Source of the DNA: Candidatus Magasanikiibacteriota bacterium
Lineage (GTDB): Bacteria; Patescibacteriota; Patescibacteriia; Magasanikbacterales; GWA2-37-8
DNA length: 49,773 nucleotides
NCBI GenBank assembly: GCA_046590235.1
Contig: JBKJTY010000021.1
Location: 1 to 49,773 of the forward strand
Direction of reading: 5' to 3'
A program made the translations under genes and the position numbers. Positions 22,845 to 44,088 of the stretch are shown one piece after another. The notes beneath the pieces were generated by a model. It saw only the letters and a list, made by a program, of their open reading frames with translations, searched no databases and was not told the origin of the DNA. The first letter of the stretch is position 1; every line of letters begins with the position of its first letter.

Positions 22845-25304
22845 TCATAAACGAGCCATCTTATCAAGAGCGATTTTCAAGTCTGCCTTAAATTTAAATA
22901 AGTCTTGCCATAGGTCACCCATCTTTTCAAGACGTTTAAATATGGTTTGTATGGTAAATTTGCTTGGACTAAGTCCTAATTTTACTTCTTTCCACAGAAG
23001 AGGTGTGGATACAGTCGCATCGGGCACCGGACGTAAGCAGTAGGGGGCAGCCATGGTTTGCCCACGACGGTTTTGTAGGAAATCTAAGTACACTTTATCC
23101 AGGCGTTTCGCGGGGCTTCGTTCAAGACTGGTAGTATCGGGAAGCTCTTTGTGTACAAAACGCATCAAAAGCTCTGCAAAACTTTTTACTTGTTCGTGCG
23201 TATAACGCTGCTCAATAGGTATATAAATATGTAAGCCTGTTTTGCCTGAGGTTTTACAGAAAGACGGAACTTTAATAGCGTCGAGGAGTTGCTTACTTAC
23301 TAATGCGGCCTTAACTACTTCATCAAAAGAAATGTCACCAGGATCAAGATCGATAACTAAATAATCCGGGTAATCAAGTAATGGAACGCGCGCATTCCAA
23401 ACATTAATTTCTATACAGCCAAGGTTAACCAGATAAAGAAGGCTTGGTAAGTCGTTGCAGATACTATAATTAATAACTCGTTCTTCGCTGTCTGATTCAA
23501 CTGGTACGCGAGGGATCCAGCTCGGCATATCGTCAGTAGTATTTTTTTGAAAAAAACTTTCTTCGTGAATTCCGTGGGGGTGACGATGAAGAGATTGTGG
23601 GCGATCTTTTAAATAGGGAAGTATATATGGTGCGATCAACCGATAATAATCAAGCAAGTCTTGTTTGGTATAACTGTGCTCCGGCCAGAGCACCTTACTC
23701 ATATTAGTAATGGTTAAGCGTCGTTTATTTACGTTAATATTTTTTTTCTCATCTAGAGTAGTTTTAAAAACTGTTTCCGGCTGTTCCGCTTTTTCATGGC
23801 GAACGGTTTTGGGCGGGCGATCATCGCGTAGTCCTAAAAAGATTGGTTGACGCATACTTCCATCATTGGTCCACTCAGAAAATTGTACATCGCAAACGTA
23901 GTGCGGTTCTACCCAGTGAACAGGCGCATTCGGGATAGGTTTGCTTTTAAAGGGGGAGGATGTTTGCTCAAATGGTTCGAGCATCTTCCGCAGTGACTTA
24001 AGTTCGGCGTCATCAATGCCGCCACCCGTATGCCCGATATAGATAAAGTCATTCCCTTCGTATACTCCTAAAAGAAGTGCTCCTAGTGCTTTTCGACTTC
24101 CGCGCGGTTCGGTAAAACCACCAATAACAGCTTCTTGCCGACGAAGATGTTTTATCTTCAGCCAATCTTTAGAACGCACGCCGGGTTGGTAGGGACTATT
24201 CTGTTTTTTAGCAATAACACCTTCAGCCCCTTCGAGAATGGCGGCATCAAAAAAGGCAATTCCTTGTTCCCGTATATAGTCACTGATTTGAACGTGTTCT
24301 AATTTTGGAAGTGTGGCCGATAAAAGCTTCCTTCGTTCAAGCAGGGGCAGTTTAGTAAGATCTCGGCCATCCAAAGCCAGCAAATCAAAAATAAAATAGC
24401 GTAATGACCCTATAGGTTTTTCATTATAATGTTGTAGCAACTGAAAGCGCGATCGTCCTGCTGCATCGAGGACAACAATCTCCCCATCAATAATGATAGA
24501 TTGTTTTATTTTACTCAAATCCACCACAATGTTCGGATACGAATCGACAAAGGATGTCTGCTTACGAGAGTAGAGCGCGATTCCGTCCGAAGTGACTTCA
24601 GCTATAGCTCGGTACCCATCCAACTTTAGTTCAAATAACCACTCAGGATGATCAAATGGTTTATTAATCGCTGTGGCGAGCATCGGGGACATACCTTCCC
24701 CTTTGAAAGTCTTCGGCTTTGATTCCCGTATAGGATCATCTGAAGTAAGATCGTTTAAATGGCGACCGCTACGAACAGAAGTATCAAAGCGGGAAACTGG
24801 TTTAGCAGATGCATAATCATCAGATTGTTTAATGAGTAGCCAGCTATTTTTCTCATCAATCTTAACTAAAGAAAAGAGCCCTTTAAGGCGTGTCCCAGAT
24901 AAAACAAAAGAAAGATGGCCCTTTGCTAAACCTTTTCGCATATGTTTAGCGCTCAGGGCTGGATCACTTGTTTCGGGTGAAGAGTACGCCCCTTCATCCC
25001 AGATAATAACTTCACCAGCTCCGTAATTCCCCTTGGGAATAATCCCTTCAAAATTGCGGTATTCCAAAGGATGGTCCTCAACCATCATCGCGAGACGTTT
25101 ATCTTCGGGGTTCATGGACGGTCCTTTGGGGGTTGCCCAGCTTTTCAAAACACCATCCAGTTCAAGACGAAAATCAAAGTGAAGATGGGAGGCGCGGTGC
25201 TTTTGTACTACAAAATGCAAAACCGGAGAGGTTTTTTTAGTTGTACCGACTGGTTCAGGGGTACGTCTAAAATTTCGTTTAGTACGATAATCCTTGAGAG
25301 GCAT
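22845..25304 (-). CDS. ligD: Multifunctional DNA ligase D (phosphoesterase-ligase-polymerase)
   Basis: PE domain (QKHRASHLHFDFRLE, SWATPKGPS); ligase (ELKLDGYR, EGVIAK, WLKIK); PolDom (DLDP, KTSGKTGLHI, DFLQN). Confidence 0.96.
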   Translation of the reverse strand: MPLKDYRTKRNFRRTPEPVGTTKKTSPVLHFVVQKHRASHLHFDFRLELDGVLKSWATPKGPSMNPEDKRLAMMVEDHPLEYRNFEGIIPKGNYGAGEVIIWDEGAYSSPETSDPALSAKHMRKGLAKGHLSFVLSGTRLKGLFSLVKIDEKNSWLLIKQSDDYASAKPVSRFDTSVRSGRHLNDLTSDDPIRESKPKTFKGEGMSPMLATAINKPFDHPEWLFELKLDGYRAIAEVTSDGIALYSRKQTSFVDSYPNIVVDLSKIKQSIIIDGEIVVLDAAGRSRFQLLQHYNEKPIGSLRYFIFDLLALDGRDLTKLPLLERRKLLSATLPKLEHVQISDYIREQGIAFFDAAILEGAEGVIAKKQNSPYQPGVRSKDWLKIKHLRRQEAVIGGFTEPRGSRKALGALLLGVYEGNDFIYIGHTGGGIDDAELKSLRKMLEPFEQTSSPFKSKPIPNAPVHWVEPHYVCDVQFSEWTNDGSMRQPIFLGLRDDRPPKTVRHEKAEQPETVFKTTLDEKKNINVNKRRLTITNMSKVLWPEHSYTKQDLLDYYRLIAPYILPYLKDRPQSLHRHPHGIHEESFFQKNTTDDMPSWIPRVPVESDSEERVINYSICNDLPSLLYLVNLGCIEINVWNARVPLLDYPDYLVIDLDPGDISFDEVVKAALVSKQLLDAIKVPSFCKTSGKTGLHIYIPIEQRYTHEQVKSFAELLMRFVHKELPDTTSLERSPAKRLDKVYLDFLQNRRGQTMAAPYCLRPVPDATVSTPLLWKEVKLGLSPSKFTIQTIFKRLEKMGDLWQDLFKFKADLKIALDKMARL

Positions 25305-25306
25305 AC

Positions 25307-26116
25307 TTAACGAGTTTTATGATGTTTCTTTGATGATTTTGTCTTCTTGCCTTGTTCAGCTTCCAAGCTGCGGCGCAAGGTGGCCATAAGATCTCTAACG
25401 TGAATCGGTTCTGGTGCAGTGCCATGTGCTTTTGGTGTGCGACCTTTGGCTTTGGCTTCAATTATTTTTTTCAGCTGGTCCGTGTACGTATCGCTGTAAT
25501 TGTCAGGTTTAAAGGAAGTGGAAAGTTGATCGATAAGCTGAAGAGCCAGATCAATTTCTTTTTTTTGAGATGCTGATTTAGCGGCTGTCTGCAATCCTTC
25601 CGGCTTACGTATCTCTTCTGCAAAATGCATTTGTTCCAGAACGATCAAATCACCATGTGGTCGAATAATGCCTAAGTGTTCTTTGCTACGTAAAACGTAC
25701 TTTGCTACACCAACTTTTTTAGATTTTTTTAAAGCATCGAGCAGTAAGGTGTAGGGCTTTTGTGTTTTTCTATCCGGCTCGAGGTAGTAGGGCTTTTCAA
25801 AAAAAATAGGATCAATTTCTTTTTCATCAGTAAACTGAATAATTTCAATCGTGCTATTTTCTGTTACATTAGCCTTCTTAAAATCTTCATCAGTCATCAC
25901 TACATAATCTCCATCGTGATATTCATAACCCTTCACAATATCTTCATAAGCCACTTCACTACCTTCGGCGCGACAAACTTTGGCAAAACGGATAGGCGAA
26001 AGATCCTTCTTATGCAATAAGTGGAAAGATAATTCTTTTGGTTGTAGGGCGCTGTATAGTCGTATAGGTATAGTCACCAACCCAAAACTCAGCGTTCCGG
26101 ACCAGATTGCTCGCAT
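25307..26116 (-). CDS. ku: Non-homologous end-joining protein Ku
   Basis: MRAIWSGTLSFGLVTIPIRLY, IVKGYEY, PYYLEPD, DLMATLRRSL, basic tail. Confidence 0.96.
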   Translation of the reverse strand: MRAIWSGTLSFGLVTIPIRLYSALQPKELSFHLLHKKDLSPIRFAKVCRAEGSEVAYEDIVKGYEYHDGDYVVMTDEDFKKANVTENSTIEIIQFTDEKEIDPIFFEKPYYLEPDRKTQKPYTLLLDALKKSKKVGVAKYVLRSKEHLGIIRPHGDLIVLEQMHFAEEIRKPEGLQTAAKSASQKKEIDLALQLIDQLSTSFKPDNYSDTYTDQLKKIIEAKAKGRTPKAHGTAPEPIHVRDLMATLRRSLEAEQGKKTKSSKKHHKTR

Positions 26117-26159
26117 ATGCTTTGAAAAATAAATGCAGCCTCGCGGCTGCATTAGTATG

Positions 26160-27603: not shown

Positions 27604-27655
27604 TTGACATAAGGGTTGTAAGGCAGTAGTATAGTATAAATGCAACACAGTTGCA
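27604..27655 (+). promoter_or_regulatory. zur-znuACB promoter with putative Zur/Fur operator
   Basis: TTGACA-17 bp-TAGTAT (27604-27632), then the palindrome TGCAAC-ACA-GTTGCA (27641-27655). Confidence 0.7.
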
Positions 27656-27668
27656 CTATGTTATTACT

Positions 27669-28106
27669 ATGGATCTCAATCAGCACATCAAACAACTTAC
27701 AAACAGTGGTGAGCGTTTAACCGCTGTCAGGCATGCTCTTATTGAAATTTTATCGCATAGCCACAAACCATTGGCTGTTCAGGAGTTGCTTAAAGCTCTT
27801 GATAAAAAGAGGCTTTCCGCTAATAAAACCACTGTTTATCGACAATTAGCGGCTATGATGCGTTCTAACGTTATCGAAGAAGTTCGTTTAACTGACCGAA
27901 GTGTTCGCTACGAGCTGGCAGAAAACAAACACCACCATCACCTCGTTTGTCTAAAATGCCACAAGATAGAAGATGTAAGTTTTGATGAAGACTTTGGACG
28001 CCAAGAAAAAATTATCAAGAAAAAAACAGGTTTCACTATTACACAGCATTCATTAGAATTCTTCGGACTTTGCGCCGAATGTCAAAAGAAATATGCAAAA
28101 AAATAA
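27669..28106 (+). CDS. zur: Fur-family regulator, probably Zur
   Basis: TTVYRQL, HHHHLVCLKC, FFGLCAEC; first gene of a znuACB-like operon. Confidence 0.85.
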   Translation: MDLNQHIKQLTNSGERLTAVRHALIEILSHSHKPLAVQELLKALDKKRLSANKTTVYRQLAAMMRSNVIEEVRLTDRSVRYELAENKHHHHLVCLKCHKIEDVSFDEDFGRQEKIIKKKTGFTITQHSLEFFGLCAECQKKYAKK

Positions 28107-30594: not shown

Positions 30595-31128
30595 CTATTT
30601 GAGAAGGTGAGTGTATTTCTGTCTGAGCTTAGCAATCTTTGGGTTAATAACTGCCTGACAATATGGTTTGTCTTTATTTTGTTGATAATAATTTTGGTGG
30701 TACTCTTCAGCTTGGTAAAAAGCCCCAGCTTCTTTCATCTCTGTAACAATTGGCTTAGAAAATACCCGGTCATCAGTTAATTGTTGTATAAAAGACTCAA
30801 TCGCGGACTTTTGTTTAACTGAATCAAAGTAAATCGCTGAGCGGTATTGTGTACCGACATCAGCGCCTTGTTGGTTGAGTGTGGTTGGATCGTGAGAGGT
30901 GAAAAAGACGGTTAATAGATCGTTCAGAGTTATTATTGTAGGGTTAAAGTCAACTTTAACCACTTCCGCATGGCCAGTTAATTCGGCGCTGACTTCTTCA
31001 TATGTTGGATTTGGCCGACGTCCACCGGCATAGCCAGAGGTAACAGAGACAACGCCTTTGAGCATTTGGAAGACCGCTTCCATACACCAAAAACAGCCGC
31101 CACCAAAAATAATGGATTGAGTAGGCAT
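30595..31128 (-). CDS. msrA: Peptide-methionine (S)-S-oxide reductase
   Basis: GGGCFWCME, SGYAGG, HDPTTLNQQG.DVGTQYRS, AEEYHQNYY. Confidence 0.97.
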   Translation of the reverse strand: MPTQSIIFGGGCFWCMEAVFQMLKGVVSVTSGYAGGRRPNPTYEEVSAELTGHAEVVKVDFNPTIITLNDLLTVFFTSHDPTTLNQQGADVGTQYRSAIYFDSVKQKSAIESFIQQLTDDRVFSKPIVTEMKEAGAFYQAEEYHQNYYQQNKDKPYCQAVINPKIAKLRQKYTHLLK

Positions 31129-31131
31129 AGA

Positions 31132-31503
31132 TTAGACTTTTGGATTTTTAGGGATAAATTTTAACGAGACTGAATTGACGCAGTGGCGGGTATTTTTCTC
31201 GGTAAATCGTTCACCAACAAAGACGTGACCCAAATGTGCTTCGCAGGTAGCGCAGGTGATTTCGGTGCGACTACCATCAGCATCGGTTGTACGTTTTACC
31301 GCGCCAGGAATCTCTTGATCAAAACTAGGCCAGCCGCAACCCGAATGGAATTTGCTGGTGGATGTATAAAGCGGGGTTGAACAGCGACGGCAAACGTAAG
31401 TACCTTCAACAAAGAAGTCGTCATACTCGCCAGTAAAGGGCGATTCAGTGCCTTTTTGTTCGATAACACGCGCTTCTTCGGGGGTCAGAGGATTTAGTTG
31501 CAT
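31132..31503 (-). CDS. msrB: Peptide-methionine (R)-S-oxide reductase
   Basis: [30 protein letters not shown]; two CxxC. Confidence 0.97.
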
Positions 31504-31509
31504 AACCAA

Positions 31510-34053
31510 TTATTTTTTCTTATTAACAATGATAAGTATAATAACTCCGGCTAGGGTGAAAGTACAGAGAGCTGCAAGCGTAGCACCAATGGCTAATTTA
31601 TGCTCAGAGATAAACGTGAAGATTGAAAATGCTTTTTTGAGAGGTAAGACGGCAGGGCTAGCTCGAAATGGAGAGGCGGTGGTTGGGGTGGAGGTACTAA
31701 TGCGGGTAACAGGTGATATGCGCTCAGCAATCCAGCTAACGACAGCTCCTTGTTCGGGAGAAACAGCGGTATTCGCTATGCTTGCTGGAGTAGACCGAGC
31801 AATGGTGGCTGTTGTGCGTGGGCGCGCGGCGGTTCGGGTTGATCCAGTGCTACCACCACTTGATACTCGGGGAGCTGGTGCGAGTGGGGAATCTGAAGAT
31901 TCGCTGTCAGAACTAGAATCATCGGACTGGCTATCGCCTAGACTAGCATCATCAGAAACGTCATCATCAGCGTATTCATTCGAAGTATCACTGCTGCTTG
32001 TGTCAGTATAGTCGTCTGTGTCTTTCGGCACTTCCTCAGAAACATCAATGTCATCAGCGTAACTCGAGTTATCACTAATAGGATCATCAGAAGAAGTATC
32101 TTCGGCTTCATCATCATCCTGGTCGATGGTATTTGATGGGACATCATTATTTGCACTGTATCCACTGTCATCAGCGTCGTCTGCTTCGTCAATATTTTCG
32201 TTTAGCTGAGCAAAGCTCCATGTTTGTTGTTTAGTAGTGTAACGATAGTTACTATCGTAACAAATAAAGGTAAAATTGTGAGAACCGCTAGGTACGACTA
32301 CATCGGTCATTTCATAAATGTGTAGACCAGCTGACTCAAATTCACCTGCATCTTGGTTATCAATTAAGGCGCCGCAGGTTAAGCTATCAGTGTTACCGCC
32401 GGTTGCATTGATAGTAATCGTAAAAGGATTGGTGTCGGAACCGCTGCGGCTAACTGAGTTAATAGTTGGGCTTAAAACAAGGTTTTGCGTAGTAGGGGAA
32501 GCAACAGTGACTTGCTTACTGCCTGAAGCCGAAACACCTGCTGCATTAGTACATTTTACTACTACAGCATGAGTGCCTGTAGTGAGGGGTAATGATGTAG
32601 AGAAGACGCCAGTATCAGTACCTGTTTCATTCATTACACCTTTATTTGTTCCATTAACATAGACAGCGCATTTTTTTTCGAGTACGGAAGCGCTTTCATT
32701 ACAAAAAGGCGCAGAAGCTGAGATGGTCCATTGACCAGCTGAGTTACTTGCGGCGTTAACAATAACGGAAGGGGTTGGTGCCGCCGTCCAATAAACTGAA
32801 TCCGAAGCGCTATTACTATAATAATCGTAGCAATTAACAATTGCTTCGTGTTCACCGGTGGTTATATTTGTTGTGAAAGTAAATGCTTTGCGATTTAAAG
32901 GTGCACTTGTACTTTTTATCATGGCGACAGCCTCAGCACGGTCAATCCGCAAAGAACAGTTATCGGTGTTTAAAGATGTGATAACGGTTAGCGTTCGGCT
33001 ACCTATATTTTTACTATCAATTGTTAAGCCATAAGTCTGATTCCCAAATTCTGTTTCCGGAACACTTGTGGCAGTCCAATTATAATGTTTGACAGCACCG
33101 TTACTCAATTGATCATAGCATTGGACTGTCGCCTCATTGCTGCCAGCGGCAATAAAAGTAGTTAACGAAAATAGTGCTTTACCGGTTGAAGGAACGGTCG
33201 AGCTTTTCTCCATCGCCCGGTCAGTGATATCTGGACCGTCGTTGTTGCTATAGCGGAATTTACATGAAACGGTATTAGCAGAAACTTCAGCATACATTAT
33301 TTGGTTAAAGCTAGATTTTTGATTCGCAGGATATACTTTATAAATAGTAACACCGCTATCATCAATTACTGGTGGCGGGGTAGATGCGGGCGCTGTAGCA
33401 ATCCAGTCATAATGTCTTACTGCCCCATTACTGTAATAGTCATAACACTGCACTGTTGCTGAGTGATTTCCTGCAGCAATAGTGACTGCTTTAGTAAATA
33501 TAAACTTACCATCAGTAGGGGTTGATTTTTTTATCATAGCCCCATGATCGGTACTGTCGATTCGCAAATTACAGTTATTTGTATTTAAGGCTCCAGCAAC
33601 AGAAAAAGTTCGAGCACCAGGAAGTTCGCTATCAATTTTTACAGTATAGATGGTAACACCAAATTCCATTTCAGGCGTTTCAACCGCTTTCCAGTCATAG
33701 TATTTTACTGCGCCATTACCAAGCTGATCATAGCATTGCACAGTCGCAGAATTACTACCTGCCGGTATAAAAGTGGTGAGTGAAAATAGTAATCGCCCAG
33801 GTTGAGGAATTGTCACGCTTTTCTTCATTGGAACATTGCCGCTGTAAGAACCTCCATTATTTTTATATTTAAAGTTGCAAGAAACGGTATCACTAGAAAC
33901 TTCAGCATTAACAACCTGGCTAAAACTTGCGTTCAGATTTGCGGTGGAGACACTATAAATCACCACATCCGCTTGAGCCGGCTTAGAAAGTGACAGAAAA
34001 AAGAGTGTAAATAAAAAAAACGCTGATTTTTTAGACCAATGAGAAAAAAACAT
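31510..34053 (-). CDS. Large surface protein with repeated 2-Cys beta modules, acidic stalk and C-terminal TM anchor
   Basis: Signal peptide; ~100-aa modules ending ATVQCYD..SNGAV..Y.W; D/S-rich region; TM followed by NKKK. Confidence 0.8.
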   Translation of the reverse strand: MFFSHWSKKSAFFLFTLFFLSLSKPAQADVVIYSVSTANLNASFSQVVNAEVSSDTVSCNFKYKNNGGSYSGNVPMKKSVTIPQPGRLLFSLTTFIPAGSNSATVQCYDQLGNGAVKYYDWKAVETPEMEFGVTIYTVKIDSELPGARTFSVAGALNTNNCNLRIDSTDHGAMIKKSTPTDGKFIFTKAVTIAAGNHSATVQCYDYYSNGAVRHYDWIATAPASTPPPVIDDSGVTIYKVYPANQKSSFNQIMYAEVSANTVSCKFRYSNNDGPDITDRAMEKSSTVPSTGKALFSLTTFIAAGSNEATVQCYDQLSNGAVKHYNWTATSVPETEFGNQTYGLTIDSKNIGSRTLTVITSLNTDNCSLRIDRAEAVAMIKSTSAPLNRKAFTFTTNITTGEHEAIVNCYDYYSNSASDSVYWTAAPTPSVIVNAASNSAGQWTISASAPFCNESASVLEKKCAVYVNGTNKGVMNETGTDTGVFSTSLPLTTGTHAVVVKCTNAAGVSASGSKQVTVASPTTQNLVLSPTINSVSRSGSDTNPFTITINATGGNTDSLTCGALIDNQDAGEFESAGLHIYEMTDVVVPSGSHNFTFICYDSNYRYTTKQQTWSFAQLNENIDEADDADDSGYSANNDVPSNTIDQDDDEAEDTSSDDPISDNSSYADDIDVSEEVPKDTDDYTDTSSSDTSNEYADDDVSDDASLGDSQSDDSSSDSESSDSPLAPAPRVSSGGSTGSTRTAARPRTTATIARSTPASIANTAVSPEQGAVVSWIAERISPVTRISTSTPTTASPFRASPAVLPLKKAFSIFTFISEHKLAIGATLAALCTFTLAGVIILIIVNKKK

Positions 34054-34117
34054 ATAAAAAATAAAAGCTAAAGCTAGTCATAGTATAGCATTTAACAAGA
34101 GTTTTTAGTACATACGA

Positions 34118-34190
34118 TAAAAAGCACACCATCTACAAAGTAGTAGATGGTGCGTGGCCTTTAGTAGTAACGCCTTTCCAATTACGTTAC
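34118..34190 (-). ncRNA. Candidate Zur/Fur-regulated small RNA (~72 nt)
   Basis: Lies between a strong promoter and a 12-bp terminator stem with U5; 5' hairpin GUAACG/CGUUAC; no credible ORF. Confidence 0.55.
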
Positions 34191-34196
34191 GCTTGT

Positions 34197-34225
34197 AGTA
34201 TATGCAACTGAGTTGCACTTGTCAA
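34197..34225 (-). promoter_or_regulatory. Sigma70 promoter with putative Zur/Fur operator in its spacer
   Basis: Minus strand TTGACA-agTGCAACTCAGTTGCA-TATACT (17-bp spacer). Confidence 0.75.
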
Positions 34226-34290
34226 GGAGCGCTGTGGACAGTATTAAACTGCAAGCTTATACGTCTATTATAGTGATTGACACTATATAT

Positions 34291-34680
34291 ATGAAAGGAC
34301 ACATCATTAACATTGACGAAGCTACTAAAGAAAATACAGACTACCGTCGTGTGTTGTTTACGACTAAGAATAGCCAATTAGTAGTAATGAGCCTTAAGCC
34401 GAAAGAAGAAATCGGGATAGAAGTGCATCATCTCGATCAATTTATTTACATTGAGGCTGGTAGTGGAGTTGCAGTACTTGGTGGCGTTGAGAGTAAGATT
34501 AGAGAGGGGGACGCTGTTATTATTCCACAAGGTGTTGAGCATAACATTATTAATACTGGTCAAAATGAACTTAAAATTTACACAGTGTACGCACCGCCAG
34601 AACATAAAGATGGGGTGGTGGAAAAAACTAAAGCTGATGAATACGAGGAACACTTTGATGGAAAAACAACCGAGCAATAG
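34291..34680 (+). CDS. Cupin domain protein
   Basis: YRRVLFT, QLVVMSL...EEIG.EVH.LDQF, IPQGVEHNIINTG, YAPPEH. Confidence 0.9.
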   Translation: MKGHIINIDEATKENTDYRRVLFTTKNSQLVVMSLKPKEEIGIEVHHLDQFIYIEAGSGVAVLGGVESKIREGDAVIIPQGVEHNIINTGQNELKIYTVYAPPEHKDGVVEKTKADEYEEHFDGKTTEQ

Positions 34681-34763
34681 GAGTAACTATTGTCCAAAAA
34701 AGCATAACCGATCGTCTAATAGATAAAAGGGTGTACACCCATTTATATTTAACTTATACTCAT

Positions 34764-34880
34764 ATGCCAAACAGAAAACGAGGTTCTGCGGCAATGGACA
34801 GAAGTAAAGTCCGAGAAATTGCTAAAGGCGGGCGTTCACGTGGTGGTAGCCGCGGACGTTCTAAGAACCAATCACGATAG
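34764..34880 (+). CDS. 38-aa KGG-motif general stress protein (YciG/GsiB-like; not in ORF track)
   Basis: MPNRKRGSAAMDRSKVREIAKGGRSRGGSRGRSKNQSR* matches the RGFA.MD..K.REIA.KGG pattern. Confidence 0.7.
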   Translation: MPNRKRGSAAMDRSKVREIAKGGRSRGGSRGRSKNQSR

Positions 34881-34927
34881 GCGTAGTAAAACCAACCTTG
34901 GTGGGTTGGTGGTGTTTACAGATAAAG

Positions 34928-34956
34928 AAAAAAATCCGCTCAATAAGCGGATTTTT
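34928..34956. terminator. Bidirectional terminator
   Basis: aaaaaaatccgct-caata-agcggattttt between the KGG gene and tRNA-Gly. Confidence 0.7.
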
Positions 34957-34964
34957 AATTTACT

Positions 34965-35039
34965 TGGAGCGGGCGACGGGAGTCGAACCCGTGTCACCAG
35001 TTTGGAAAACTGGGATAATAGCCGTTATATGACGCCCGC
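34965..35039 (-). tRNA. tRNA-Gly(TCC)
   Basis: gcgggcg...ccagt-TT-TCC-AA-actgg...gttcgactcc...cgcccgc-T-CCA. Confidence 0.95.
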
Positions 35040-35044
35040 ACTTT

Positions 35045-35073
35045 GTCCGCCATAGCTCTAAAGCGAAGGCGGA
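35045..35073. repeat. REP-like hairpin (TCCGCC.TAGCT..AGCGAAGGCGGA type)
   Basis: tccgcc-atagctctaaagcgaa-ggcgga in the tRNA leader. Confidence 0.5.
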
Positions 35074-35087
35074 ATAATTGTTCCGTC

Positions 35088-35115
35088 ATTATACTAAATT
35101 ATGCCATTATGTCAA
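35088..35115 (-). promoter_or_regulatory. Promoter for tRNA-Gly(TCC)
   Basis: Minus strand TTGACA-16 bp-TATAAT. Confidence 0.75.
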
Positions 35116-35240
35116 TCTGAAGCCGTGGGCGTGAACGCTGTGCATAACTAAGTAAAAAAAGTATTGTAAGGAAGTAATATTTTTTATATACTTGCCGCAG
35201 CATTTATTTCACATGCCCCTGAAAAGGCACTGGAGGCCAA

Positions 35241-35513
35241 ATGAAGATGGAAATCCTCGAAGAGGAAGTACGCGGTGGCACGAAGCGCAAGCGCATTGTG
35301 TTCGAGAAGGACAAGGTGGATGCGCTCCACCTTGCAGCCTTCGCCGAGCAGTGCGAAGCGATCTACAGTGGTACGATTTACGTTGAAGCAGTGGCCAAGG
35401 GTGGCATGCACTACAAGGGTGAGCTGCCGATCTACCGCATCAAGCGAGCGCTGAACCGATGGTTCGACAAGATCTCAAGTCGTGAGCCGTCGGAGGTGAT
35501 TGCCACTGCTTAG
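35241..35513 (+). CDS. Hypothetical protein (GC-rich orphan)
   Basis: GGAGG SD before the ATG; G/C-ending codons; no motif recognised. Confidence 0.65.
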   Translation: MKMEILEEEVRGGTKRKRIVFEKDKVDALHLAAFAEQCEAIYSGTIYVEAVAKGGMHYKGELPIYRIKRALNRWFDKISSREPSEVIATA

Positions 35514-35671
35514 CAGTGAAACAAGAAATAATGCGACGGAACGGATATGAGAATGTTGTTGTTTAGGCAATCCCGCTCCGTCCCGTCACTCGTGTACACA
35601 ACTTATCTTGCGTCCACCAGAAGAAAAAACAATCCGCCACAAGCGGATTATTTTTATTGCAAAATGTATGA

Positions 35672-36094
35672 TTACCTCCAGACCGCCAAGATGCCGCTGA
35701 TGAGAAGGAAGTAAACGAGGAGGTGTCCGAGGCTGATGTAATAAATTTTCCAAGGTTTATTTTCCCACAGCACGCTGTTAAGAAGGAGTGGAGCGGCAAA
35801 ACCAAGCCACATCCAGAAGCCGCCCTGCAAACCCTCTGTAAAGGTTTGTGCATTGAAGGCTGCCATAACGTGCGCCATCACATAGGACAAAAGGAATGAA
35901 CCAAGAAAGGCTAAGAAATAATATAATCCCATGAACTGGTTAGCTCTTACCGATTGGTTGCCAATTCTTGATTGTAGGAACGCCAGCCAAGCCGTTCCAA
36001 AGAGTGGTCTGGAAAACCAAATCATGCCGAGCGGCATGTTAAGCAGTGCGCACACGAGTACCGCCCAGATATTCACGGAAACTTGGAGTATCAT
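35672..36094 (-). CDS. DUF1761 family membrane protein
   Basis: VNIWAVLV...GMIWFS.PLFG.AW, GGFWMWLGF, LWENKPWK. Confidence 0.85.
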   Translation of the reverse strand: MILQVSVNIWAVLVCALLNMPLGMIWFSRPLFGTAWLAFLQSRIGNQSVRANQFMGLYYFLAFLGSFLLSYVMAHVMAAFNAQTFTEGLQGGFWMWLGFAAPLLLNSVLWENKPWKIYYISLGHLLVYFLLISGILAVWR

Positions 36095-42916: not shown

Positions 42917-43471
42917 ATGCAACGAGCGGTAAATATTAAAGGTAAAACAATCGAGTACACACTTCGACGTCGACGTGGTACAAGGCGCGTTTCTATTTCA
43001 CTCCATCCTGAACACGGAGTTATTTTGTCCTTGCCATGGTATATACCAGAGGCAGCAGGCCAAGATTTTCTAAAAAGCAAAGCCGAATGGATTGAGAGTA
43101 AAATGGCTTGGCTTGCAAAACATCCGGTTAATAAGCTGGCCATACCAAAAGCAGATAAACCAAGACTTAAACGCCTTGCGCTGCAGCTGGTGCGTGATCG
43201 GTTGGCCTTTTTCAATCAGCATTACGGCTTATCATTCAAAAAAATTAGTATACGACAACAAAAAACACGGTGGGGCAGCTGTTCTAAAAGTGGGACAATC
43301 AGTTTTAATATTAAACTGGCAATTATTGATTCAGCATTGGCTGACTATGTGGTGGTACACGAGCTTTGTCATGTGCAAGAGATGAACCATTCTGCAAAAT
43401 TCTGGGCGCTGGTAGCGCAAACTATTCCAGACTATAAGGAACGTCGAAAGAAATTGAAAAGCATACATTAA
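42917..43471 (+). CDS. YgjP/DUF45-like zinc metalloprotein (M48/SprT-like)
   Basis: QKTRWGSCS, DYVVVHELCH, MNHSAKFW. Confidence 0.9.
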   Translation: MQRAVNIKGKTIEYTLRRRRGTRRVSISLHPEHGVILSLPWYIPEAAGQDFLKSKAEWIESKMAWLAKHPVNKLAIPKADKPRLKRLALQLVRDRLAFFNQHYGLSFKKISIRQQKTRWGSCSKSGTISFNIKLAIIDSALADYVVVHELCHVQEMNHSAKFWALVAQTIPDYKERRKKLKSIH

Positions 43472-43498
43472 AAAAGAACCGCATAACGGTTCTTTTTT
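43471..43498. terminator. Bidirectional terminator
   Basis: aaaaagaaccg-cataa-cggttctttttt. Confidence 0.75.
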
Positions 43499-43500
43499 GT

Positions 43501-44088
43501 TTAGCGTTTAGCGAGGAGTTGATCGATGTATTTGGCTAACATATCGAACTCAACACTGATCAAATCGCCAACCTTTTTACGAGCGAGGTTTGTTTCTTTG
43601 ATAGTATACGGAAGAATTTTTACTTGAAAGTTTTTACCTTTAACGCTTGTAATCGTGAGGCTAATACCATCAAGGGCGATGGAACCTTTCTCGCTGATGT
43701 AGCGAGCCATAACGGGTTTAGGTAGGGCGATGGTGAAGACCGTGGAATCGCCTTCAGGAGTAATAGCAGTAACGGTTCCAGTCGTATCGACATGTCCTTG
43801 CACCATGTGGCCACTCAAGCGATCACCGAGGCGTAGGGACTGTTCTAGGTTGACCCCGTCACCGACTTTGAGAGAACCGATTGCGCTGCGTTTCAAACTT
43901 TCCGGCATGTATTCAAAAATAAGTTTCGTAGTTCCAGAAACAACTGTAGAGCAGACGCCATTAATGGATATGCTTTCACCTTTGTAGGTCTTCCATTTTT
44001 TAGGTCTGATGAGAGCGATGGTCATGCCGCCGTTATGTTTTTCAATGGACGCAATTTTTCCCTGCGCAGTGATAATACCGGTGAACAT
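43501..44088 (-). CDS. ribE: Riboflavin synthase (alpha chain)
   Basis: MFTGII N-terminus, SISINGVC, VNLE.SL, GHMVQGHVD, KGSIALDGISLT. Confidence 0.95.
   Translation of the reverse strand: MFTGIITAQGKIASIEKHNGGMTIALIRPKKWKTYKGESISINGVCSTVVSGTTKLIFEYMPESLKRSAIGSLKVGDGVNLEQSLRLGDRLSGHMVQGHVDTTGTVTAITPEGDSTVFTIALPKPVMARYISEKGSIALDGISLTITSVKGKNFQVKILPYTIKETNLARKKVGDLISVEFDMLAKYIDQLLAKR

Follow-up and report, generated by a model that had tools for sequence, protein, structure and literature searches.

The window analysed here is a stretch of 49,773 nucleotides (nt) from a Candidatus Magasanikiibacteriota genome (contig JBKJTY010000021.1, phylum Patescibacteriota). On its minus strand at 34225-34119, between a divergent cupin gene and the gene for an 847-amino-acid (847-aa) surface protein, lies a short unit that runs from a promoter to a terminator and holds no open reading frame (ORF). 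An inverted repeat in the promoter of this unit recurs at the zur-znuACB operon of the same window. We describe the unit as a candidate gene for a Zur-repressed small RNA (sRNA) and weigh that reading against the others it admits. The positions of its parts and neighbors are collected in Table 1.

A promoter, a palindrome and a terminator

The promoter, P1, is of the sigma-70 type and near to consensus: it reads TTGACA-17-TATACT and agrees with the consensus at 11 of 12 positions in a consensus scan. Its 17-nt spacer is filled by a perfect 7-1-7 palindrome, TGCAACT-C-AGTTGCA (TGCAACTCAGTTGCA), and the inverted repeat overlaps the core promoter. Downstream, the 78-nt RNA from 34192 to 34115 folds at -29.2 kcal/mol (z = -5.1; 0 of 200 shuffles were as stable) into a 7-bp 5' hairpin and a terminator. 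The terminator has a 12-bp GC-rich stem (CGCACCATCTAC/GTAGATGGTGTG, 34154-34125) followed by CTTTTT and was also picked up by a terminator scan. We found no ORF in the 82 nt of the unit: all three frames are closed or have no start codon. Because most related promoters have their ORF 5-10 nt after the -10 hexamer, as leaderless genes, the P1 transcript would start near 34192-34188. The preliminary description of this locus had proposed such a transcript of about 72 nt, a hairpin, a linker, a 12-bp terminator and U5 without an ORF, behind a promoter with the palindrome in its spacer. Reading, consensus scan, fold, terminator and frame checks bore this out, and reading agreed with its claim that the 847-aa gene has a TG-N-TATACT promoter of its own.

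The unit has its own promoter and its own intrinsic terminator, within 50-300 nt of each other and with no ORF, as a stand-alone sRNA gene would. In the source genome, 6 of 257 strong promoter-like sites have a perfect-stem terminator 25-110 nt downstream; three of these six are tRNA genes and one is the present unit. This signature is rare and otherwise marks real RNA genes. The Rfam search that had been suggested for the unit gave no family match even at E values up to 10. On the region as a whole, that limit admitted two meaningless weak matches, to a snoRNA and to a XIST repeat, and at gathering thresholds the whole window gave tRNAs only.

Two further sites in the source genome have a strong promoter and a perfect-stem terminator within about 120 nt, one on contig C32 (about 22870-22990, plus strand) and one on contig C24 (about 4607, plus strand). 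At the C32 site, about 70 nt show no clear ORF; it may represent a further small RNA or else the meeting point of convergent genes.

Table 1. Features of the ORF-less unit and its surroundings, in window positions
Feature	Position	Strand	Basis or remark
Upstream element TGTCCACA, DnaA-box-like	34233..34240	-	7 nt upstream of -35; read from sequence
-35 hexamer TTGACA of P1	34220..34225	-	kept in the family and order promoter pattern
Zur-type operator TGCAACTCAGTTGCA	34203..34217		same box, same register before Fur-family genes in Patescibacteria-type records
-10 hexamer TATACT of P1	34197..34202	-	consensus scan
Predicted transcript, about 72 nt, no ORF	34119..34190	-	start inferred; 3' end placed at U-tract
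5'-terminal hairpin, 7 bp, loop AAUUGGAAAG	34167..34190	-	fold
Single-stranded 12-nt A-rich linker UACUAAAGGCCA, candidate seed	34155..34166	-	fold
Intrinsic terminator: 12-bp stem, 6-nt loop, C + U5	34119..34154	-	fold and scan
P2, extended -10 TGCTATACT, for downstream gene	34082..34090	-	read from sequence
847-aa surface protein, then msrB and msrA	31510..34053	-	downstream neighbor
Divergent cupin gene, probably outside the unit	34291..34680	+	Pfam Cupin_2
Second operator copy, zur-znuACB promoter	27641..27655		motif scan

The box and its regulator across Patescibacteria

The zur promoter (TTGACA-17-TAGTAT, 27604-27632) has a second copy of the box (TGCAACACAGTTGCA) behind it, starting 9 nt beyond the -10 hexamer, where the preliminary description had placed it. 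On the plus strand, both boxes read ATGCAAC-NN-AGTTGCACT. The operon behind this second box encodes FUR (27669-28106), ZnuA, ABC_tran and ABC-3 proteins by Pfam, and its regulator gene is the only Fur-family gene in the genome. With up to one mismatch, TGCAACN3GTTGCA matches the window twice against 0.21 matches expected, a count reached by 3 of 100 shuffles. The 917-kb genome contains three exact matches against 0.048 expected from base composition. The third exact copy (contig C32, 37804-37818) falls within an rmuC-like gene; there it codes for ATQLQ, and two genomes of the same genus, G001 and G003, conserve it as coding sequence. It is probably a coding coincidence, which could still bind the repressor.

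We scanned related genomes with the pattern TTGACA-N3-GCAAC-N3-GTTGC-N-TATANT, allowing one mismatch and using the reversed pattern as a control. The pattern matched 16 places in 15 of 100 genomes of the family and 29 places in 28 of 240 genomes of the order; the reversed control matched none in either set. An exact, slightly narrower pattern found 58 loci in species-representative genomes other than that of the window. The titles of these records are largely of Patescibacteria type (Gottesman-, Levy-, Shapiro-, Falkow-, Komeili- and Magasanikii-bacteria, Microgenomates, "Patescibacteria group"), although many read otherwise. The same narrower pattern run on metagenomes gave 115 stretches, of which 80 were readable as loci and yielded 81 promoters. 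As read from translations, most of the 58 genome loci and 81 metagenome promoters have a Fur-family gene directly downstream, and others precede ZnuA-like, ZnuC-like, ZIP-like or ParA-like genes. The same motif is found at the regulator's own gene and at metal-uptake genes, as expected of an operator. Since the same box-in-spacer promoter precedes a Fur-family gene in most loci, the palindrome very probably serves the Fur-family protein as operator.

These promoters have little room for a leader. The first long ORF, mostly that of the Fur-family protein, begins 5-10 nt after the -10 hexamer at 39 of the 58 genome loci and at 54 of the 81 metagenome promoters; hence Zur-box promoters evidently yield mostly leaderless mRNAs. 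We conclude that the box-in-spacer promoter is a standard design in Patescibacteria, mostly before leaderless zur genes. The census defines a Zur-type operator and promoter design for this group, useful for annotation. P1 shares with the zur-znu promoters the TTGACA, the 2-3 nt that follow, the 15-bp palindrome and a TATAMT that directly abuts it. However, a coding gene usually begins 5-10 nt after the -10 hexamer in those promoters, whereas here a hairpin and a terminator follow.

Upstream of the -35 hexamer, several Zur-box promoters carry a DnaA-box-like word, T[AG]TCC[AC]CA, with TTATCCACA as its full form. Of 122 distinct Zur-box promoters, 13 have TCC[AC]CA at a distance of 3-10 nt upstream of the -35, compared to 22 of 1883 control windows. 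The word also stands upstream of several TGnTATAAT promoters in the source genome (contigs C5, C7, C19, C21 and C24), in which 24 of its 139 copies are intergenic as against 9.5% of DNA being non-coding. Its role may be that of an upstream promoter element specific to the lineage, or of a site for a regulator.

Which metal does the repressor sense? The Fur-family protein matches the Fur, PerR and Zur models of NCBIfam, all far below cut-off, and scores better with Fur and PerR than with Zur, so that its metal is not fixed by sequence. It might sense iron, manganese or peroxide, which would place the RNA in another stimulon and would be compatible with any reading of the unit. As the sole Fur-family protein of the genome, it may also combine several roles, and ZnuA-family binding proteins are known to carry manganese or iron as well. 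We nevertheless consider a sensor of this kind improbable. The regulator gene heads the operon with ZnuA, ABC_tran and ABC-3; the ZnuA-like protein, as read from its sequence, has His at three metal-ligand positions, a set we take to be typical of zinc-type members of its family; and elsewhere the box precedes genes whose translations read as ZIP-like transporters and His-rich secreted proteins. The name Zur is given because of the znuACB operon context and not because of sequence class. On these grounds, the single Fur-family repressor is probably Zur.

Recurrence and constraint of the unit

The preliminary description had suggested that the genome and its relatives be scanned for the box. 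Among the 100 family genomes, ORF-less promoter-hairpin-terminator units were found in seven, which belong to three genera: the source genome (G000) together with G001 and G002 of the same genus (g1, which also includes G003), G009, G074 and G075 of genus g7, and G076 of genus g28. All of the units form a 5' hairpin and a terminator joined by an A-rich linker (z of the folds between -3.6 and -8.0), and they fall into five sequence types. In G000, g7 and g28, the terminators have GC-rich stems of 10-15 bp and end in U5-U7. We found no unit in G003, even at 3 mismatches. Searching the 100 family genomes for the box and -10 without a -35, and with up to 3 mismatches, revealed no further ORF-less unit. 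No new unit was found among the 58 genome loci, six of which are units already counted, or among the 81 metagenome promoters, three of which have less than 80 nt of downstream sequence. A metagenome search for the box and -10 followed by 85-112 nt and then TGnTATAMT had 0 matches.

The G001 and G002 units have the ribE terminator on one side and, on the other, the stop codon of a convergent gene for a YgjP-like metallopeptidase; no co-oriented gene lies downstream. At the same ribE/ygjP junction of G000 (43469-43512), there is one terminator and no unit. Hence, the unit forms a separable module of about 170 bp, present at this junction in two genomes and absent from it in a third, and it occupies different loci within one genus. 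G001 and G002 are 81% identical over 3 kb. By comparison, their promoters are 97% identical, the 72-nt RNA cores 95.8%, and the part of the core outside the terminator 91%, while the adjoining ribE terminator region is only 58% identical. Of 2965 alignment windows in these 3 kb, 5 are as conserved as the RNA core, and all 5 overlap it; no other 72-nt stretch of the locus is better conserved. The G001/G002 terminator is bidirectional and must also serve the convergent gene; part of its conservation is due to this sharing. In G009 and G075, the flanks barely align (43% identity overall), whereas promoter and RNA are about 70% identical and the terminator stem contains one compensatory double change from G-C to A-U. 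We conclude that the unit is under purifying selection. It is conserved beyond the neutral rate and independently of its neighbors, as is expected of an sRNA gene.

Perhaps the unit is nothing but a relic or an insulator, an orphan metal-regulated promoter that was left by gene loss or rearrangement and closed by a terminator, its RNA being functionless? It does lie in a variable region. Neither the 847-aa gene nor the cupin gene was found in same-genus genomes (G001, G002 and G003 for the cupin; five relatives were queried with the 847-aa protein), and in G001 and G002 a different gene precedes msrB-msrA. The distribution of the unit is patchy, its position differs within a genus, its RNA sequence is not conserved between genera, and no targets were found. 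However, the promoter, the box and the RNA core are the best conserved parts of the G001/G002 locus, where a plain neighboring terminator has drifted, and the two-hairpin architecture is kept across all five sequence types and three genera. Moreover, small dense genomes (about 91% coding by crude ORF calls) are unlikely to keep seven relics with perfect promoters. We regard a functionless remnant as quite improbable.

A palindromic box in a divergent intergenic region could also serve the gene on its other side, in which case the box would mainly control the cupin gene and the minus-strand RNA would be incidental. By eye, a weak plus-strand promoter, TTGTCA (34219-34224)-17-TATTAA, can be read beside the box; the scanner did not list it. 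The box-in-spacer geometry and the consensus hexamers point instead to the minus strand. No cupin was found in G001-G003, which carry units or Zur promoters; in G009, the cupin gene is on another contig with no box upstream; and the other units have no divergent gene. We have rejected control of the cupin gene as the main function of the box, considering it very improbable.

Small RNA or leader

Five of the seven units (G000, G009, G074, G075 and G076) are directly followed by a co-oriented gene for a secreted or membrane protein. In each of these, the unit sits 24-38 nt upstream of a TGnTATACT promoter, which follows the terminator and is itself followed by a U-rich leader of about 22 nt and the gene for an exported protein. 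That gene encodes the 847-aa protein in G000, YibE/F in G009, G074 and G076, and in G075 a small secreted protein with YibE/F after it. Might the unit then be a leader acting in cis, in line with the alternative named in the preliminary description, a regulated attenuator for the surface protein? P1 would drive the 847-aa-msrB-msrA operon through a leaky or conditional terminator, P2 would provide basal expression, and the short RNA would be a by-product. In one variant, leakage through the terminator would add a metal-dependent boost over basal P2, and the by-product might act further, as S1077 may. [quoted passage not shown] It resembles the five co-oriented units in that a short RNA shares a metal-regulated promoter with downstream genes and ends before them. 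[quoted passage not shown]

Two other promoters of the same type fit a leader as well. In G163, before a ZnuA-like gene, and at locus L187, 59 nt before a long ORF, a hairpin and a terminator-like hairpin lie inside the leader. The yibE/F gene of G000 adjoins the other Zur box and is divergent from zur, although its promoter (27570-27542) is about 70 nt from the box and repression there is not evident. Against a leader stands the G001/G002 unit, which has no co-oriented gene downstream and is strongly constrained. In addition, the terminators are strong, each co-oriented gene is served by a promoter of its own behind the terminator, and the downstream genes belong to different families. Inspection of the G000 unit, without a formal test, revealed no convincing antiterminator pairing, and Rfam matched no riboswitch. 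A separate TGnTATACT promoter for each co-oriented gene is what one would expect if P1 transcripts ended at the terminator. We regard a leader or attenuator as the main rival of the sRNA reading, although as less likely than that reading. If it were correct, a regulated promoter, a terminator and a constitutive promoter would form a recurrent layout before envelope-protein genes. The stand-alone sRNA and leader readings are not mutually exclusive.

The reading that we favor, tentatively and with somewhat less than even confidence, is that 34225-34119 is a stand-alone gene for a Zur-repressed sRNA. Metal-loaded repressor would sit between the -35 and -10 hexamers, block RNA polymerase and shut P1; under zinc shortage, P1 would fire. 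The RNA would consist of the 5' hairpin, the A-rich single-stranded linker and the strong terminator. Its 5'-terminal hairpin and strong 3' hairpin would stabilize it and leave the linker and the loop free to pair, and it would act in trans by base pairing through one or the other, without Hfq. Transcription, the response to zinc and a zinc-sparing role are what we infer for the unit, and action in trans is suggested by the analogous cases of ZinS and of sRNAs under Fur or MntR control (see below). The preliminary description had likewise proposed a Zur-controlled sRNA. Its case is strengthened by the very probable operator of the Fur-family protein, by the terminated unit without an ORF and by recurrence in relatives; a search for targets by simple scans yielded nothing above chance.

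Several observations weigh against the sRNA reading, in addition to the co-oriented genes, the leader hairpins of G163 and L187, the shared terminator of G001/G002 and the scores of the regulator given above. Among the sequencing runs listed for 31000-36000, none is recorded as RNA, and the single DNA run may be the source sample. The distribution is patchy, with no unit found in 93 of the 100 family genomes. BLAST with the G000 unit matched 3 of 60 relatives, and only over the promoter part, and the g7 RNA matched only the three g7 genomes, its other matches being chance hits of 16-26 nt. The RNA sequences are genus-specific and cannot be aligned between genera, although the architecture is kept: in a MAFFT alignment of the units, the 3' arms of the terminators fall out of register and hairpin 1 of g7 lies in gap columns. 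A word like AAAGGCCA (up to 2 mismatches) stands just before the terminator in all five sequence types, which is weak evidence for a shared element; three or more shared words were also seen in 3% of shuffles, and the U-tract is itself one of the three.

The search for targets belongs with these points. Complementary 10-mers and 9-mers at translation starts were not above shuffles once a self-antisense artefact had been removed, and long-duplex energies, dominated by that artefact and by loose duplexes, were uninformative. Pairing of the short RNA with its own downstream 5'UTR was better than in shuffles for only one of five units. In the source genome (95.6% complete), we found no match to Hfq (PF17209), ProQ (PF04352) or CsrA (PF02599). 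An RNA chaperone is not obligatory for trans-acting sRNAs in all phyla.

Two pairing candidates were considered and set aside. A histidine-kinase gene on contig C21 has a 9-nt match over its start codon, but relatives share the kinase domain only and have no matching start region. Antisense pairing of the linker with a start codon followed by Ala/Thr-Phe codons found no support; by chance, a start-like triplet results with three of the four bases.

Small RNAs of iron and manganese starvation are textbook material; RyhB, PrrF and FsrA are metal-sparing sRNAs of this kind. IsrR and RsaC are further metal-sparing examples (PMC13586535). In these Fur- and MntR-controlled sRNAs, the operator of a metalloregulator overlaps the promoter of a small non-coding RNA, which metal starvation releases; this is also the logic proposed for the present unit. 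The likeness is one of analogy across phyla, not of homology, which matches the fast sequence turnover of the unit. They also differ from it: they typically place C/U-rich seeds on ribosome-binding sites and some need Hfq or FbpABC, whereas the exposed parts of the unit are A/G-rich and none of the three chaperones sought was found in its genome.

For zinc, the first case came only in 2026 with ZinS of S. aureus, a Zur-repressed sRNA of 274 nt that encodes the 34-aa peptide ZinP (PMC13586535, Nucleic Acids Res 2026). That paper demonstrates the expression, targets and zinc response of ZinS, proposes a zinc-sparing response, describes a bidirectional terminator shared with a convergent gene, and leaves open whether other bacteria have such RNAs. 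ZinS and our unit have in common a Zur box in the promoter of a stand-alone RNA gene and an intrinsic terminator, which in the G001 and G002 units is bidirectional and shared, as in ZinS. The differences are the length (274 nt with ZinP compared to about 72 nt with no ORF), the host phylum and the evidence, the present unit being a prediction from sequence. The unit does not belong to the ZinS family, since a zinP ORF is absent and Rfam gave no match, with the presence of ZinS in Rfam unchecked and no direct comparison to ZinS made.

By literature listings, we found no description specific to sRNAs or a Zur regulon in Patescibacteria or the candidate phyla radiation. Homologues of zinP from further phyla may be given in the supplementary material of the ZinS paper. 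The locus is a concrete candidate with clear sequence boundaries on both sides. Its host, a tiny soil bacterium, belongs to a very distant lineage and has a minimal genome with few regulators. A broader proposal would be that Patescibacteria without Hfq, ProQ and CsrA carry fast-evolving two-hairpin riboregulators of 70-85 nt under a single Fur-family sensor, released in zinc starvation, acting in trans through an A-rich linker and moving as a cassette of about 170 bp. We hold this generalization to be doubtful. If true, it would provide the first regulatory sRNA with a defined regulator in the radiation and the second lineage with a Zur-controlled sRNA.

In the protein encoded downstream of the unit, a signal peptide, repeated domains that contain Cys and a long acidic region rich in Asp and Ser are combined with a membrane anchor at the C terminus. 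Its approximately six repeats carry a TVQCYD-like motif, and the protein has only sub-threshold matches to Big_13 and Glucodextran_B. Given the overlap of the 847-aa gene with the start of msrB, these two genes and msrA are probably one operon. The stretch 31500-35040, with the 847-aa gene, the unit and the cupin gene, resembles a variable insertion flanked by msrB and a tRNA gene (34968-35039).

The yibE/F gene of the source genome (26359-27519, minus strand) stands divergent from zur, and in g7 and g28 yibE/F lies directly downstream of the unit. Its recurrence beside Zur boxes hints at a role in metal homeostasis. In g7, the unit follows genes for two His-rich secreted proteins next to zur. 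Those of G009 (reverse-complement coordinates 383-1039 and 1121-1483) have no Pfam match and lie between the unit and a zur gene with two boxes; they are candidate extracellular zinc-binding proteins. Finally, this genome of about 0.9 Mb has, within the window, a gene for a Ku-domain protein (25307-26152, minus strand), which marks non-homologous end joining.

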